Sequence record: LT960607
DNA: 5,538 nt
Direction: 5' to 3' (one strand)
Origin: Escherichia phage SECphi17
Part shown: in pieces, positions 1 through 5,538 of the stretch
Layout of the letters: each line of letters begins with the position of its first letter
How positions within the stretch are numbered: position 1 is the stretch's first letter
The notes under the pieces: generated by a model
What the model saw: only the letters and a program-made list of their open reading frames with translations
What the model was told of the DNA's origin: nothing
Databases searched by the model: none
Translations under genes and position numbers: made by a program

Positions 1-1377
1 GATACATTCACCCTGGACGATATCATTTCCGGTAAACCAATCCCTGAAACTGCCCCTGATGAATTTCGCCTCTCCGATGAAATCGGTGAGGACTATCGTC
101 TTACCGTCCTTAAAATTGTCGATGAATTGCAAGAATGTTACGACGTGCTCGGACAACTTGATATTAATAACACTATAGACCACACCACTAAAGGTAACGT
201 CCACTGGAGTATGCTTTATGATAAACCTGTTAACACACATTGGTCACAGCTCGTATCTAAACGACCCCTTAAAGATATCCGCGCCGATTACAACTATGCA
301 AAGGCGAAGGGTATCAAGGATGAATGCTCAAAAATGCTTGAGGAGTCCACTATGAAATCACGACGTGGCTTTACCGTTCAAAGATTGATGAATGCCATGC
401 GCCAGGCCCACACTGATGGCTGGTATGTTGTATTCGACACTCTTACTCTGGCTGATGACCGCATACAGGCTTTCTATGATAATCCCAATGCTCTTCGTGA
501 CTACTTCCGTGATATTGGTCGTATGGTGCTTGCTGCCGAGGGTCGCTCTGCTAATGACTCACACGCCGACTGCTATCAGTATTTTTGTGTTCCAGAGTAT
601 GGCACACAGCACGGTCGTCTACATTTCCATGCAGTGCATCTTATGCGCACACTTCCTTTGGGTTCTTGTGACCCTAACTTCGGTAAGCTGGTACGCACTA
701 ATCGCCAAATAAACTCCTTGCAAAATACATGGCCCTATGGCTATTCTATGCCCATTGCAGTCCGGTACTCCCAAGACGCATTCTCGCGCGCTGGCTGGCT
801 CTGGCCTGTCGACTCAAAGGGTGAACCCCTTAAAGCTACCTCGTATCAGGCTGTCGGTTTCTACGTCGCTAAATACGTTAATAAAAAATCTGATATTGAT
901 CTGGCTGCAAAAGGCCTAGGGAATAAAGAATGGAACGCATCACTCAAGACCAAAATATCTCTACTACCAACCAAACTTTTCAGAATCCGGATGTCCCGCA
1001 ACTTCGGGATGAAGATGTTATCAATGGCGCACCTGACCGCCGAAACATTAATCCAACTGACCCAGCTGGGTTACGACTCGACCCCGTTCAACAACGTCTT
1101 GAGACAGAACGCCAAGAAAGAGCTGAAATCGAGGCTGGCAAAAACATCTGTCGCGACCGTTTTGGCGGCGCAACCTGTAACGACCAATCTGCTAAAATTT
1201 ATGCGCGATTTGACCCGAACAATCGGAGCGTCCAACCTGCAGAATTTTATCGCTTCAATGACGCAGAAATTAACACTCATGGATATTTCTGATGAAACCA
1301 AAAACTACCTTGCTGCTGCAGGAATTACTACATCTTGCTTACGAATTAAATCGAAGTGGACTGCTGGCGGAAAATGA
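1..1377 (+). CDS. A: Replication initiator protein A (rolling-circle HUH endonuclease), 3' portion; 5' end is at 5226 across the circular junction. Full gene is 1635 nt (544 aa).
   Basis: Frame 1 is open from base 1 to TGA at 1375-1377. Translation matches recalled phiX174 protein A over most of its length (e.g. [54 protein letters not shown]). HUH-type motif HFHAVH at 622-639; paired catalytic tyrosines in [10 protein letters not shown] (Tyr codons 862-864 and 874-876). The TTG at 127 in the ORF track is only the first start-like codon, not the real start. Confidence 0.95.
154..183 (+). other. Viral (+)-strand origin of rolling-circle replication: the 30-nt protein A recognition and nicking sequence, inside gene A.
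   Basis: CAACTTGATATTAATAACACTATAGACCAC at 154-183 is identical to the conserved 30-nt origin of phiX174-type phages as I recall it. The expected nick is between G160 and A161. Confidence 0.85.
352..1377 (+). CDS. A*: A* protein, from an internal in-frame start of gene A (341 aa).
   Basis: In-frame ATG at 352-354 (MKSRRGF...) preceded by GAGGAG at 340-345. Position and sequence match the recalled phiX174 A* start. Cannot be proven from sequence alone. Confidence 0.6.
718..747 (+). promoter_or_regulatory. Candidate sigma70 promoter pB inside gene A: -35 TTGCAA (718-723), -10 TATTCT (742-747), 18-nt spacer.
   Basis: Sequence match to -35/-10 consensus. It is positionally homologous to the recalled phiX174 pB region (TTGCAAAATACGTGGCC...), about 190 nt upstream of B. 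Not experimentally supported here. Confidence 0.35.
930..1292 (+). CDS. B: Internal scaffolding protein B (120 aa), encoded in an alternate frame entirely within gene A.
   Basis: ATG at 930-932, TGA at 1290-1292. C-terminal half closely matches recalled phiX174 B (EIEAGK..., [32 protein letters not shown]); N-terminal half is divergent. Confidence 0.9.
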
Positions 1378-1456
1378 AGAAATTCAATCTTGCATTAAAG
1401 AACTCGAGAGGGTCTTACTTCACAACCTTTCGCCATCAGCTCGCAATAGTCGCTAA
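1292..1456 (+). CDS. K: Protein K (54 aa), overlapping the end of A and the start of C in a third frame.
   Basis: ATG at 1292-1294 overlaps the B stop (TGATG). Hand translation gives [54 protein letters not shown], stop TAA at 1454-1456. Similar to recalled phiX174 K (..[13 protein letters not shown]...). Too short for the supplied ORF track. Confidence 0.8.
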
Positions 1457-1634
1457 GACTGATGCTCTTGATGAAGAAAAATGGCTCAATATGCTGGGCA
1501 CTCTTCTTAAGGACTGGTTCCGTTACGAAGAACATTTCGTACATGGCAAACAATCTTTAGTTAACATATTAATCGAGCGGGGGTTAATATCCCCCACACA
1601 AACAACCCGTAACAATAAAGGAAATACCAAATGA
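1374..1634 (+). CDS. C: Protein C (86 aa), DNA maturation / ssDNA synthesis switch.
   Basis: ATG at 1374-1376 overlaps the A stop TGA at 1375-1377 (ATGA). Protein [23 protein letters not shown]...[27 protein letters not shown] matches recalled phiX174 C. The track's GTG at 1356 is an upstream in-frame extension I reject. Confidence 0.9.
1561..1590 (+). promoter_or_regulatory. Candidate sigma70 promoter pD inside gene C: -35 TTAACA (1561-1566), -10 TAATAT (1585-1590), 18-nt spacer.
   Basis: Consensus-like hexamers at the position homologous to recalled phiX174 pD (GTTGACATTTTAAAAGAGCGTGGATTACTAT), upstream of D. Confidence 0.4.
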
Positions 1635-2086
1635 ACTCCAACGAATCTGCTGTAGCCTTTCAAACTGCAATTGCTTCTATCAAAATGATTCAAGCCTCAT
1701 CCGTCCTCGACCTCACCGAGGATGACTTCGAATTCTTAACTGGTGACCGTGTCTGGATTGCTACCGACCGTTCTCGCGCTCGCCGTGCTGTGGAGGCCTG
1801 CGTTTATGGCACACTGGACTTTGTCGGGTATCCTCGCTTTCCTGCTCCTGTTGAGTTTATTTCTGCTGTTATCGCTTACTACGTTCATCCGGTCAACATC
1901 CAGACCGCTTGCCTCATCATGGAAGGAGCCGAGTTTACTGAAAACATCGTCAATGGCGTTGAATCCCCAGTTAAGGCTTCCGAACTCTTCGCTTTCGTTC
2001 TCCGTGTCCGCGCTGGCTGTAAAGACGTCCTCGAAGGTGCCGAAGACAACATCCGCGCTAAACTCCGTGCACAAGGAATCATGTAA
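1631..2086 (+). CDS. D: External scaffolding protein D (151 aa).
   Basis: ATG at 1631-1633 overlaps the C stop (ATGA at 1631-1634). Very high similarity to recalled phiX174 D (VWIATDRSRARR.VEACVYGTLDFVGYPRFPAPVEF, VIAYYVHPVNIQTACLIMEGAEFTENI.NGVE). Confidence 0.95.
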   Translation: MNSNESAVAFQTAIASIKMIQASSVLDLTEDDFEFLTGDRVWIATDRSRARRAVEACVYGTLDFVGYPRFPAPVEFISAVIAYYVHPVNIQTACLIMEGAEFTENIVNGVESPVKASELFAFVLRVRAGCKDVLEGAEDNIRAKLRAQGIM

Positions 2087-2209: not shown

Positions 2210-3496
2210 ATGTCTAATGTTCAAACTTCCGCTTCTCGCGATGCAATTGATTTATCACATCTGGTCTTCAACACTGGCGCTATTGGTCGTCTTAAAGTCG
2301 CGTCATGGACTCCTGTTATTGCTGGTGATTCTTTCCAGCTTGATGCTGTTGGTGCTTTACGCTTATCCCCTCTGCGTCGTGGCCTGGCTATTGACTCAAC
2401 TGTTGACTACTTCACTTTTTACATTCCACACCGTCATATCTATGGCAATGCATGGATTGAATTTATGAAAACTGGTGTCGCCGCCGCTTCTCTTAACCCT
2501 GTAACCACTGCGGCTTATGTTGACGGTGCTTCTTATCTCGGTGTTATTCCTTCTGCTGACAACAAGGTTCCTAAATTCCTGCACCAAGGCTATCTCAATA
2601 TTTATAATAACTACTTCAAAGCCCCTTGGATGGCTGACCGTACTGAGGCAAACCCATCCAACTTAAATGATGACGACCGTCGTCACGGCTTCCGTTGCTG
2701 TCATTTAAAAAACATCTGGTCTGCGCCTCTTCCTCCTCAAACGGAAATTACCCGCGCTATGACTACTGGCGCTACCTCCATTGATATTATGGGTCTTCAA
2801 GCTGCTTACGCCCAACTTCACACTGACCAAGAACGTGACTACTTCATGCAGCGTTACCGTGACGTTATCTCTTCTTTTGGTGGCAAAACTCACTATGACG
2901 CTGATAACCGTCCTCTTCTGCTTATGCGCTCTAACTTCTGGGCATCTGGCTATGACATTGACGGTACTGACCAAACTTCTTTGGGTCAATTCTCTGGTCG
3001 CGTCCAGCAAACTTTCCGTCACTCTGTTCCTCGCTTCTTCGTGCCTGAACATGGCGTTGTTATGACTCTTCAACTTGTACGCTTCCCGCCTACCTGTACC
3101 GAGGAAACTCACTACCTCGTTGGCAAAGGCGCACTAAGCTATACTGACCTCGCGGGTGACCCTACTCTTTACGGTAACTTACCGCCTCGAGAAATCGAAA
3201 TGAAAAATCTCTTCCGTGGCGCTGCTGGCTCTACTGAAAAAATCAAAATTGCCGAAGGGCAATGGTATCGCTATCATCCTTCTTACGTTGATGGCCAATA
3301 TCACAACCTTAAAGGCTTCCCGTTCATCCTAAACGGCCCAACCGGCAACATGGAAAATCGTGTACTGATTGACCATAAAAAATATGACGAATGCTTCCAG
3401 TCACTTCAATTAACCCATTGGAATGCTCAGGCTAAATACAATGTCACTGTATATCGACACATCCCAACCACTCGTGATAGCATCATGACTTCTTAA
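2210..3496 (+). CDS. F: Major capsid protein F (428 aa).
   Basis: ATG at 2210 with AAGGA at 2199-2203. Long stretches match recalled phiX174 F (LRLSPLRRGLAIDSTVD, HQGYLNIYNNYFKAPWM, GFRCCHLKNIW.APLPP, IDIMGLQAAYA.LHTDQERDYFMQRY, QTSLGQFSGRVQQT, PTTRDSIMTS). Confidence 0.97.
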   Translation: MSNVQTSASRDAIDLSHLVFNTGAIGRLKVASWTPVIAGDSFQLDAVGALRLSPLRRGLAIDSTVDYFTFYIPHRHIYGNAWIEFMKTGVAAASLNPVTTAAYVDGASYLGVIPSADNKVPKFLHQGYLNIYNNYFKAPWMADRTEANPSNLNDDDRRHGFRCCHLKNIWSAPLPPQTEITRAMTTGATSIDIMGLQAAYAQLHTDQERDYFMQRYRDVISSFGGKTHYDADNRPLLLMRSNFWASGYDIDGTDQTSLGQFSGRVQQTFRHSVPRFFVPEHGVVMTLQLVRFPPTCTEETHYLVGKGALSYTDLAGDPTLYGNLPPREIEMKNLFRGAAGSTEKIKIAEGQWYRYHPSYVDGQYHNLKGFPFILNGPTGNMENRVLIDHKKYDECFQSLQLTHWNAQAKYNVTVYRHIPTTRDSIMTS

Positions 3497-3507
3497 AGCC
3501 TATAACG

Positions 3508-3545
3508 TGACAGGGGGAAAAATTTTAATTTTTCGCCCCCTGTCA
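3508..3545 (+). other. F-G intergenic hairpin: 10-bp perfect stem (TGACAGGGGG / CCCCCTGTCA) enclosing an AT-rich loop AAAAATTTTAATTTTTCG. Candidate complementary-strand priming site and/or terminator TF.
   Basis: Inverted repeat 3508-3517 / 3536-3545 read directly from the sequence. The loop is nearly identical to the recalled phiX174 F-G loop (TAAAAATTTTAATTTTTG). Confidence 0.5.
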
Positions 3546-3595
3546 GGTTGAACAAGCGCAAGCGCGTTAGCTGCCTAACTATAAGGACTACTCAA

Positions 3596-4120
3596 ATGTT
3601 CCAGAACTTTGTTACTAAACACAATTCTCCTCAATTTACTACTACTATCACAAAGGCCGTCACTCCTGCCGCGTTGGCTCCTATTATTAATACGCCAACC
3701 GTTGCGCGTGACAATTTCTTTGTGAGCTTAACTACTACCGCCCTAACTTCTCCGGGCGGTATCTCTGCTGTTGTCGCTATCGACAACTCTTCTCATACCG
3801 ACAATCAGGTTATTTCTATTGCTGCCTCTCTTTCTACTACTGGCAGCCTAGTACCTGTTCTTTGTCGGTTTGAATCTGCTACTGTACCAACGGCTATTCC
3901 CGCATCTGCGGTTACTTACTACCCGTTGGGCTTTACATCATCTGCTACCGCTTTGTCTGTCAAGGACTGCGCTACTGTCTCTACTCTTTCCCGCTCTGGC
4001 AATCCTGTTTATGTAGGTATTGTCCTTATTGCGAAATCATTTGTCGCTGATACTGTATACGGCTCTATCTCAATTAATCAGGTTGACCAAGAAATCACAA
4101 CTCTGCAACCTCTCAAATAA
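3596..4120 (+). CDS. G: Major spike protein G (174 aa).
   Basis: ATG at 3596-3598 with AAGGA at 3583-3587. Conserved N-terminus MFQ.F..HNS and C-terminus ..VKDC.T......R..GN.VYVG.......LQPLK relative to recalled phiX174/G4 G; the middle is divergent. The track's TTG at 3548 would start translation inside the intergenic hairpin region and is rejected. Confidence 0.9.
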   Translation: MFQNFVTKHNSPQFTTTITKAVTPAALAPIINTPTVARDNFFVSLTTTALTSPGGISAVVAIDNSSHTDNQVISIAASLSTTGSLVPVLCRFESATVPTAIPASAVTYYPLGFTSSATALSVKDCATVSTLSRSGNPVYVGIVLIAKSFVADTVYGSISINQVDQEITTLQPLK

Positions 4121-4129
4121 GGAATCTCT

Positions 4130-5167
4130 ATGTTTGGTTTAATCGCTGGCGGCATCGCCTCTGCTCTTGCTGGTGGTTTAATGTCCAAATTGATGGGCGG
4201 CAATAAACAAGCCGCCCCCTCAACTCCCGGACAAGGCCTCTTCGCTACTCCTGAAACTACTATCTCTGCTGATAATGCAGGTATTCAATCTGTTATGCAG
4301 GGGCCTAACCCGCCCGGCCCTGACCAAGCGGCTCCTTCATTTACCGAATCTGCCGTCTCCTCATTTAAGGATGTCGGCAAAGGACTTCTCGATGGTACTC
4401 TACAAGCTGGCGGCTCTGCTGTTCAACAAGCTCTTCTTAACAAAATTGGCCTCGGTGGTAAATCTGCTTCTGATAAAGGCGAGGACACTAAGGATTATCT
4501 TGCTGCTGCGTTCCCAGAACTCAACCCGTGGGAACGCGCTGGCGCTGGTGCTTCCTCTGCTGGCATGGTTGACGCAGGTTTTGAGAATCAAAAAGAACTA
4601 ACCAAAATGCAACTTGATAACCAAGTCAAAATCGCTAAGATGCAAAACGACACGCAAAAGGATATTGCTGGTATCCAGTCTGTCACTTCTCGGTTAAATA
4701 CCAAGGATTCTGTGTATGCTCAAAACGAAATGCTCTCATACAATCAAAGAGAATCTATGTCACGCGTTGGCGCTATTCTCGAAAACACAAGCCTCACCAA
4801 ACAACAACAAGTCTCTGAAATTATGCGGCAAATGCTTACTCAGGCTCAGACCGCAGGTCAATATTTTACAAATGACCAAATTCAAGAGCTTACTCGAAAG
4901 GTTGGTGCTGATATTGATGCTGTTCGCGCTAACACTGAGCGCACCAATGTAGAAACAGGCCGCTCCAAACAAGAGCTACAAAACTCACGTTATGCATCTT
5001 CACAGGTCGGTAAAACAGCCAAGGATATCTCAAATGTCATTATTGATGCATCTTCTGGTATTGTTGATTATTTCCGTGGCATTGATAAAGCTGTTGGCGA
5101 CACTTGGAACAATTATTGGAAAGATGGTAAAGCCGACGGAGTAGGCTCCAACATGTCTCGCAAATAG
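4130..5167 (+). CDS. H: DNA pilot / minor spike protein H (345 aa).
   Basis: ATG at 4130 with AAGGA 8 nt upstream. Glycine-rich N-terminus [16 protein letters not shown] and long matches to recalled phiX174 H ([101 protein letters not shown]). Confidence 0.95.
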
Positions 5168-5225: not shown

Positions 5226-5538
5226 ATGTCTGTAGAACTCATCAAACCACTTGTAGAAGCTGCTGGCATGTCCACGCTTACACAATCTCCAAACCTCCGC
5301 ATCTGGAAACAAGTAAACACTCGCGTAAAATTACTTGAAGAAATCCTTACTTATTACACAAACGGAATCCGTCGCTGCCCTGACACTCAGGACTTCTACA
5401 TGAATCCAAATTCACAACTTGCAACCACTATTGCCTATCGTGCTCATCAAAAGGGACACAATCCAAAATTCAAACAATACCCTGATACATTCACCCTGGA
5501 CGATATCATTTCCGGTAAACCAATCCCTGAAACTGCCC
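5226..5538 (+). CDS. A: Replication initiator protein A, 5' portion (runs to window end; continues in frame at 1..1377 of the circular genome).
   Basis: ATG at 5226 is the first start after an in-frame TAA at 5208-5210. GGAGG at 5214-5218 sits 7 nt upstream. The frame stays open to the window end, and 5484-5538 is identical to 1-55, joining frame 1 of the A body. Confidence 0.85.
   Translation, partial: MSVELIKPLVEAAGMSTLTQSPNLRIWKQVNTRVKLLEEILTYYTNGIRRCPDTQDFYMNPNSQLATTIAYRAHQKGHNPKFKQYPDTFTLDDIISGKPIPETA
5484..5538. repeat. 55-nt terminal direct repeat identical to bases 1-55: overlap from linearising a circular genome, not a biological repeat.
   Basis: Exact identity of 5484-5538 with 1-55, read directly. 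Gene A reads through the junction in frame. Confidence 0.9.

Follow-up and report, generated by a model that had tools for sequence, protein, structure and literature searches.

A phiX174-type hairpin element, probably a complementary-strand origin, in the F-G spacer of a G4-like microvirus

The F-G spacer and its hairpin

The DNA analysed here, referred to as the window, is the whole 5538-nucleotide (nt) stretch from Escherichia phage SECphi17 (LT960607), and our subject is a hairpin element in the spacer between its genes F and G that is probably a complementary-strand origin of the phiX174 type. The genome in the window, circularly permuted and complete in length, is that of a G4-like microvirus (Bullavirinae). 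The closest genomes are those of Escherichia phages MG1, lillemer and Lilleput (~93.5% identity), followed in order of similarity by PJNS002 (83%), the ID2/ID18 group and then the G4-type phages. Positions 3497-3595 coincide exactly with the F-G intergenic spacer of 99 nt. The strand shown is the packaged + strand in the phage, and likewise the mRNA sense. The features of the locus are as follows.

2210-3496, + strand: gene F (capsid), with its stop codon TAA at 3494-3496
3494-3580, + strand: 87-nt block 100% identical to ID2 (L003) 3827-3913, starting at the F stop codon and ending just ahead of the gene G ribosome-binding site
3501-3571, + strand: the whole phiX174-type element, a probable single-strand initiation site (ssi) or primosome assembly site (PAS), with main hairpin, linker, mini-hairpin and GCGTTAG tail, as delimited by covariance model and blastn
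3504-3549, + strand: main hairpin of 46 nt, homologous to the 44-nt phiX174 hairpin at 2308-2351
3504-3506 / 3547-3549, + strand: outer AAC/GTT pairing, invariant in 13 of 13 versions
3507·3546, + strand: G·G mismatch, found in five of six distinct microvirus versions
3508-3517, + strand: 5' arm of the 10-base-pair (bp) G+C-rich stem, TGACAGGGGG, perfect complement of 3536-3545
3536-3545, + strand: 3' arm of this stem, CCCCCTGTCA, reverse complement of TGACAGGGGG without mismatch
3518-3533, + strand: 16-mer AAAAATTTTAATTTTT, comprising the A·T helix and TTTA cap, letter for letter the same in phiX174
3518-3523 / 3528-3533, + strand: 6-bp A·T helix AAAAAT/ATTTTT in the predicted fold, with covariation at pairs 16 and 18
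3524-3527, + strand: TTTA tetraloop capping the A·T helix
3534-3535, + strand: CG bulge, which in the alignments belongs to the ID2/window-type version only and makes it 46 nt rather than 44
3546-3555, + strand: hairpin close and linker (G of the G·G mismatch, GTT, linker GAACAA)
3554-3566, + strand: second GC-rich element, AAGCGCAAGCGCG, which contains GCGCAAGC
3556-3563, + strand: exact DNA mini-hairpin motif GCGCAAGC, in the form GCGNNAGC; its folding here is predicted
3564-3570, + strand: conserved tail GCGTTAG
3566-3579, + strand: predicted clade-specific small hairpin GTTAG-CTGC-CTAAC, which may fall outside the core element
3582-3587, + strand: gene G ribosome-binding site TAAGGA, context outside the origin
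3596-4120, + strand: gene G (spike), with its start codon ATG at 3596-3598

Folded as single-stranded DNA (ssDNA), the spacer reaches -20.7 kcal/mol (z = -4.8), a value that none of 200 shuffles equals, and the 46-nt hairpin alone reaches -16.1 kcal/mol (z = -6.4) in a DNA fold. When the 5538-nt genome is scanned with a sliding 60-nt frame, the hairpin is the top local ssDNA fold (-16.6, against a mean of -4.2 and a standard deviation of 2.5). The RNA fold of 3497-3595 is also stable, at -34.4 kcal/mol (z = -3.8), so that the folding check proposed in a first-pass annotation of this DNA finds a stable hairpin in either case.

That annotation had described a 10-bp stem, whose arms are indeed exact reverse complements, and a loop essentially unchanged from phiX174. 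The second description holds for the 16-mer AAAAATTTTAATTTTT, but the arms are separated by 18 nt (the 16-mer plus CG), folded as an A·T helix capped by TTTA. The second GC-rich element that it placed at 3553-3565 is present, though the position of AAGCGCAAGCGCG is 3554-3566. The G·G mismatch near the base of the hairpin is not obligatory: a metagenome relative of 5539 nt (L011, OBLN01002562.1), 89-91% identical to the window, has C at the position of 3507 and hence a C-G pair there. The small hairpin at 3566-3579 varies in its loop in L011 and lillemer and is missing from phiX174 and PJNS002.

Compensatory change in the stem and the conserved 3' block

Four independent stem versions occur among the microviruses. 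Each consists of a 20-nt arm, TTTA and a second 20-nt arm; owing to the CG bulge, the 3' arm of the window type has 22 nt. Their energies as + strand DNA are alike, at -13 to -16 kcal/mol.

phiX174, NC1, WA4 and WA11: AAC G CC GA AGCGG T AAAAAT TTTA ATTTTT G CCGCT GA GG G GTT
Window, ID2, ID204, Lilleput and lillemer: AAC G TGACAGGGGG AAAAAT TTTA ATTTTT CG CCCCCTGTCA G GTT
ID18, WA14 and two metagenome contigs: AAC G TTGAACGGGTAC AAAT TTTA ATTT GTGCCTGTTCAA G GTT
Salmonella phage PJNS002: AAC G TTGCCGGGGGAT AAAT TTTA ATTT ATCCTTCGGCAA G GTT

As the first-pass annotation had said, the stem differs from that of phiX174, with TGACAGGGGG/CCCCCTGTCA against CCGAAGCGGT/GCCGCTGAGG. Relatives of PJNS002 were sought in the phage collection, and none was found there. 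Pattern scans covered viral and metagenome contigs, and most of the 39 metagenome matches are chance occurrences in unrelated contigs; only L011 and L019 are microviruses, and a variant of the element lies at 37-105 of a 37-kb metagenome contig (L018, OJIY01000164.1).

Covariation was tested on the named structure in two alignments, one of six distinct microvirus sequences and one of 13 sequences that includes non-viral replicons. The 13 natural versions come from microviruses, small Rep_1 plasmids and a G2P-type element, and their hairpins were aligned with MAFFT after removal of the two bulged CG bases. Among the six microvirus versions, 93.5% of cells pair, a share that falls to 38-49% on sliding the 3' partner by 1-3 columns, and nine of the 20 pairs show a double-sided change. 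In the larger alignment 85.8% of cells pair (~40% when slid), and double-sided changes affect 15 of the 20 pairs, including some inside the A/T ‘loop’ stretch. No shuffle, out of 500 for each alignment, reaches the observed score.

The alignment of spacers suggested earlier as a check thus does reveal compensatory changes. The accompanying argument, from covariation in the stem around a fixed loop to a structure-specific function, holds in part: the pairing covaries and a structure-specific function is supported, but the loop is not fixed. Pair 16 is A-T, C-G or T-A across the relatives, and pair 18 is mostly A-T, with G-C in the ColpVC plasmids and C-G in another plasmid (L185), both described below, so that this A/T stretch forms a helix. 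In the apex region, near-invariance is limited to the TTTA cap and a few of the A·T pairs next to it.

The mismatches are not symmetrical between the strands. A census counts 201 Watson-Crick pairs, 22 G·T and no A·C, the remainder being purine·purine, and the complementary strand folds 2-6 kcal/mol worse. Therefore the structure has been selected on the strand shown.

Conservation continues directly 3' of the hairpin, where all microvirus versions read GTTGAMCAAGCG(N)NAGCGCGKTAG. The six microvirus versions keep the GTTGAMCAAGCG block, as do two non-microvirus contigs (L096 and L155, see below); L185 carries GTTGGACAAGCG, and GTTGAACAAGC recurs in Erwinia plasmids. The tail that follows is GCGKTAG in the microvirus, L096, L155 and Erwinia versions and GCGTCAG in L185. 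Between block and tail lies a motif of the GCGN(N)AGC kind, which is GCGCAAGC in the window, GCGAAGC in phiX174, ID18 and PJNS002, GCGTAGC in WA4, GCGCAGC in L155 and L185, and CCGCAGG in the Erwinia plasmids; the variation is restricted to positions that the motif tolerates.

Extraordinarily stable DNA mini-hairpins of the GCGN(N)AGC type are said to have been described by Hirao et al., and GCGAAGC has reportedly been noted in the phiX174 origin. Melting temperatures are available for such motifs: d(GCGCAAGC) is tabulated at 72 C (PMC13037366, Table 1), and GCGNAGC DNA melts at 70-76 C compared with only 39 C for r(GCGAAAGC) (PMC13037366). Because the motif varies only at permissive positions and its DNA form is far stabler than its RNA form, it points to a role at the DNA level. 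The conserved 3' block falls outside the hairpin annotated as replication origin in phiX174 (2308-2351), and therefore the functional site may be longer than that annotation.

Origin type and competing explanations

The element can be recognised as a relative of the phiX174 site in two ways. A blastn search of 3497-3596 matches phiX174 2305-2371 with 77% identity over 70-74 nt (E values 1e-5 to 5e-4). A covariance model (R1), built from ten phiX-type elements, has a single match in the window, at 3501-3571 on the + strand (81.4 bits, E 7e-17; reverse strand 25 bits), and no match in G4, ID52 or alpha3. In MN385565.1, positions 2308-2351 of phiX174 carry the rep_origin annotation ‘Complementary (-) Strand Origin of Replication’. 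Published work locates the primosome binding site of phiX174 in its F-G spacer (PMC3606162) and describes an F-G ‘bulge’ forming the primosome assembly site (bioRxiv 10.1101/2020.03.05.979765, supplement), in agreement with what the first-pass annotation had stated. On DNA coated with SSB, the protein that binds single-stranded DNA, the site is a fork-like hairpin at which PriA, PriB, PriC and DnaT load DnaB; it is an effector of the PriA (protein n') ATPase, and loading of DnaB there depends on PriA, PriB, DnaT and DnaC (PMC5778457).

The element also occurs outside microviruses. These occurrences were located by pattern and blastn searches and confirmed with the covariance model. By blastn the element matches about 140 plasmid records, and the majority of the records listed are plasmids of 1.7-2.1 kb. 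The four that we fetched (L181-L184) are all ColpVC plasmids, whose sole substantial gene encodes a rolling-circle initiator of the Pfam Rep_1 family. Their element, for example at 1329-1389 (-) of NZ_CP024436.1, has the 20 + TTTA + 20 design with the apex AGATTTTAATCT and lies antisense to rep. A pC194-type CTTGATA nick site was sought in the ColpVC plasmids and none was found, although TTTATACTTAAGGGATAAC on the rep-sense strand bears a loose resemblance to it. A further plasmid, of 2.8 kb (L185), carries the element as well. In the Erwinia plasmids pEPIR37 (L186, NC_022963.1, 3001-3067) and pET46 (L187, NC_010693.1, 3001-3063) it is found between parA/parB and repE, ~300 nt upstream of the latter, with the mini-hairpin CCGCAGG. 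The lower stem of pEPIR37, TGACAGAGGG, is identical to TGACAGGGGG of the window at nine of ten positions.

Two contigs carry the element twice. A 5.9-kb contig from Pectobacterium brasiliense CFBP8736 (L155, contig_77, NZ_JACDSF010000077.1) has copies at 5083-5150 (-) and 5678-5745 (+), ~530 nt apart, and encodes an inovirus-type G2P, a G5P-like ssDNA-binding protein, TrbL, a TIR protein and a HicB-like antitoxin. No microvirus genes are present on this contig, and a tblastn control with microvirus F, H, D and A queries was negative. In a Clostridia-bin contig (L096, SAAW01000050.1), adjacent copies lie on opposite strands, at 1628-1695 (-) and 1712-1775 (+). The plasmid and G2P contexts are replication-related rather than gene 3' ends, which favours DNA priming over a terminator role.

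There is an experimental precedent in the ssi palindromes of pIGRK and pHW126: in pIGRK, a small rolling-circle plasmid, deletion of the palindrome, possibly a member of the present family, affects copy number, multimerisation and stability (PMC6854812).

The scan of genome contigs that yielded L096 and L155 also returned, among the loci retrieved, 123 identical copies of the phiX174 spacer, and more than 100 bacterial or archaeal assemblies contain such a contig of ~5.4 kb (L061-L180 range). These are almost certainly contamination from the Illumina phiX spike-in, and several PLSDB ‘plasmids’ of 5386 nt (from Vibrio, Cellulomonas and Edwardsiella) look like the same. A search of IMG/VR with protein F returned one locus only, a phiX174 copy.

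We consider it likely that the F-G spacer of the window carries the complementary-strand (minus-strand) origin and that this origin is an ssi, or primosome assembly site, of the phiX174 type. The direct observations are the fold and its strand specificity, the homology with phiX174, the compensatory conservation, the lack of a G4-type origin and the plasmid copies near replication functions; PriA recognition and primosome assembly at the window element would follow, by homology, from phiX174 biochemistry. When the circular + strand enters the cell, SSB would coat it except at the folded 46-nt hairpin (3504-3549) and the GCGCAAGC mini-hairpin. The hairpin, with single-stranded flanks on both sides, would mimic an abandoned replication fork and be bound by PriA. 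PriB and DnaT (and PriC), together with DnaC, would then load DnaB, after which DnaG would lay primers and the Pol III holoenzyme would turn the ssDNA into the replicative form.

Several considerations weigh against this assignment. PriA recognises such sites by their structure and in an idiosyncratic way that the sequence does not reveal; in place of the phiX174 lower stem (GAAGCGG, with its tandem G·A internal loop) the window has an uninterrupted Watson-Crick stem, and binding could differ as a result. The hairpin sits where phiX174 has its terminator T_F, so part of the conservation could serve RNA. The ColpVC plasmids show the phiX-like orientation antisense to rep, and the element may not be on their displaced strand, so that the plasmid contexts support a replication role only loosely. 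Finally, many of the 13 aligned sequences are interrelated and the shuffle statistics overstate their independence; sturdier evidence than the shuffle counts comes from the control with slid partners and from how many kinds of pair occur.

Of the other explanations, the one that fares best, though we think it unlikely, is that the hairpin acts mainly at the RNA level, as the counterpart of T_F: a weak intrinsic terminator, a 3' stem-loop shielding gene F mRNA from exonucleases or both, setting the F:G expression ratio. In phiX174, 20-40% of transcription is blocked by T_F within the F-G spacer (bioRxiv 10.1101/2020.03.05.979765), and a terminator predictor flags the entire phiX174 spacer. Because the mRNA sense is the + strand, G·T pairs would become G·U, and the RNA fold is stable, as given above. 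However, the stem in the window is followed by GGTTGAACAAGCG, which is no U-tract, and a promoter and terminator scan finds nothing within 3497-3595. Some copies lie at no gene end: in the Erwinia plasmids the element is found between the divergent genes parA and repE, and in ColpVC it runs antisense to rep. Its conserved mini-hairpin motif is also far stabler as DNA. The searches for other origins, moreover, give the window no further candidate for its complementary-strand origin. Since the mRNA has the + sense, the hairpin probably forms at the 3' end of F transcripts too, where it may act as a weak terminator or stabiliser like T_F. Such an RNA role is likely real but secondary, the origin hairpin possibly doubling as a weak mRNA 3' hairpin.

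A G4-type origin, at which DnaG alone recognises a structure on SSB-coated DNA and lays a single primer, is disfavoured and in our judgement very improbable. It would suit a G4-like genome, as the G4 primase origin occupies the F-G spacer, and the first-pass annotation, which had left the choice between the two types open, was right that the G4 spacer holds a different, primase-type origin. There is also a likeness between the GCGCAAGC mini-hairpin and GCGAAAGC, which forms the tip of hairpin I in G4, and a CTG triplet lies at 3571-3573. That triplet, however, is not conserved in ID18 or ID204, and the window spacer has 99 nt with one large hairpin, compared with ~136 nt and three in G4. The spacers of G4, ID52, WA3 and ID12 are of this unrelated three-hairpin kind, and at the tip of hairpin I, the starting point of primase, G4-type origins read GCGAAAGC or GCGAAGC. 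When similarity to the G4, ID52 and alpha3 origins was sought across the window, the longest matches had 16 nt or less and were at chance level, whereas the element is clearly homologous to the phiX174 site. The choice falls on the PriA type because of this lack of similarity together with the one covariance-model match, at 81 bits. Similarity and covariance-model searches found neither a G4-type origin nor a second copy of the phiX-type element in the window, and an Rfam scan of the entire window (E <= 1) returned no family. As far as can be judged from these searches, the only recognisable complementary-strand origin in the window is of the phiX174 type.

The F-G spacer of alpha3 (L058, 4363-4395) differs from both arrangements: it is just 33 nt long and holds a short hairpin, GGGCC/GGCCC around a TTCG loop, and then TTT. 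The G-H spacer of this phage (4960-5094) resembles the G4 primase origin, and therefore complementary-strand origins sit in different spacers across the genera of Bullavirinae.

Priming by RNA polymerase, as at the minus origins of filamentous phages and at ssoA or ssoU of many rolling-circle plasmids, is to our mind about as improbable as the G4 type. Relatives of the element do occur in a contig that encodes inovirus-type G2P and G5P, and in Rep_1 rolling-circle plasmids, replicons of a kind often primed in this way (general knowledge; PMC5714925). Against this, the phiX174 homologue is the classical primosome site that depends on PriA, and the scan reported no promoter-like -35/-10 arrangement in the spacer. 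A selectively neutral palindrome or recombination relic has nothing in its favour beyond the fact that palindromes arise by chance and is hardly credible, given covariation in 15 of 20 pairs, an asymmetry of G·T only, the top-ranked fold of the genome and an 87-nt block with 100% identity in two genomes that share 59-69% identity in the genes flanking it.

Two observations concern other parts of the window. The J-F intergenic region contains a G+C-rich hairpin at 2179-2194, TGGGGCTTCGGCCCCA, which is likely the counterpart of the phiX174 terminator T_J. The stretch 5226-5538 (H-A intergenic region and start of gene A) has 82% identity to Lilleput with ~55 gap positions and accounts for the extra 48 nt of the window relative to its closest relatives.

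Exchange of the element and comparison with known systems

The 87-nt block at 3494-3580 is the longest exact match between the window and ID2 genomes (the next is 46 nt), while gene F is 68.5% and gene G 59.1% identical at the nucleotide level. Since the element tolerates complete replacement of its stem in other lineages, constraint alone explains this identity poorly. The simplest reading suggested by the alignments is a recent transfer of the spacer as a unit, which is a lead rather than a demonstrated event. In a broader and more tentative form, for which the chances are in our judgement somewhat below even, the microvirus complementary-strand origin is an exchangeable cassette from a pool of PriA-type ssi shared with enterobacterial plasmids, and the ID2/window version has moved horizontally between divergent G4-like phages; the horizontal step is proposed because 87 nt are fully identical amid genes that are 59-69% identical. 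The nine matches in ten in the lower stem hint that the ID2/window version may be related to the ssi beside repE of the Erwinia plasmids. If the cassette reading is true, Gequatrovirus would include phages that need the PriA primosome and phages for which primase alone suffices.

This kind of element is already known; here it lies within a lineage whose type phage, G4, uses a primase-only origin. The identical sequence is also public already, for example in the ID2 and Lilleput genomes, where it is unannotated. What is added is a natural compensatory series, an extended 3' block with a DNA mini-hairpin, and the hint of an exchange of origin cassettes with plasmids. The G4-like genus would split into users of phiX-type and of G4-type origins. 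On this basis, the window phage and its ID2/ID18-type relatives are predicted to need PriA, PriB, DnaT and DnaB/DnaC at the first step of infection, as phiX174 does, and G4 proper is predicted not to need them; this bears on host range and on the engineering of microvirus genomes. The natural stem variants form a ready-made series of compensatory mutations for the phiX174 primosome assembly site, in which the features kept are the TTTA cap, the outer AAC/GTT, a purine·purine mismatch near the base and the 3' GTTGAMCAAGCG block with its mini-hairpin, and the feature left free is the stem sequence.

Compared with known systems, the window element is nearest to the n'/PriA site of phiX174. The two share the position in the F-G spacer, the strand, the 20 + TTTA + 20 design, the outer AAC/GTT, the G·G mismatch, the identical AAAAATTTTAATTTTT and the 3' block GTTGAMCAAGCG..GCGCGKTAG. 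They differ in the middle of the stem, which is rewritten (TGACAGGGGG/CCCCCTGTCA in the window, CCGAAGCGGT/GCCGCTGAGG in phiX174) so that Watson-Crick pairs take the place of the tandem G·A internal loop, and in the extra CG bulge, the mini-hairpin (GCGCAAGC in place of GCGAAGC) and the carrier genome, which is G4-like and not phiX-like. With T_F of phiX174 the element shares the spacer, and a matching hairpin would form in the mRNA, but the window has no U-tract and no terminator call.

The plasmid ssi of the phiX174 type belong to a hairpin family common to the window, ColpVC, L185 and the Erwinia plasmids. In these cases the replicon is a plasmid rather than a virus, the plasmid apex sequences (AGATTTTAATCT and CCATAAATTTTTATGG) differ, and the ColpVC copies are without the GTTGAMCAAGCG block. 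The G4-type origin (F-G spacer in G4; G-H spacer in alpha3, St-1 and phiK) has the same task, the start of the complementary strand on SSB-coated ssDNA, fills the F-G spacer in G4-like phages and also has a GCGN(N)AGC mini-hairpin motif. Unlike the window element, it has an unrelated sequence with three hairpins over ~136 nt, and DnaG and SSB suffice for its use. As for the DNA mini-hairpins d(GCGAAGC) and d(GCGAAAGC), the window motif GCGCAAGC is one of the tabulated stable variants; in the window the motif is part of a larger origin element, whereas in G4 it is the tip of a long hairpin.

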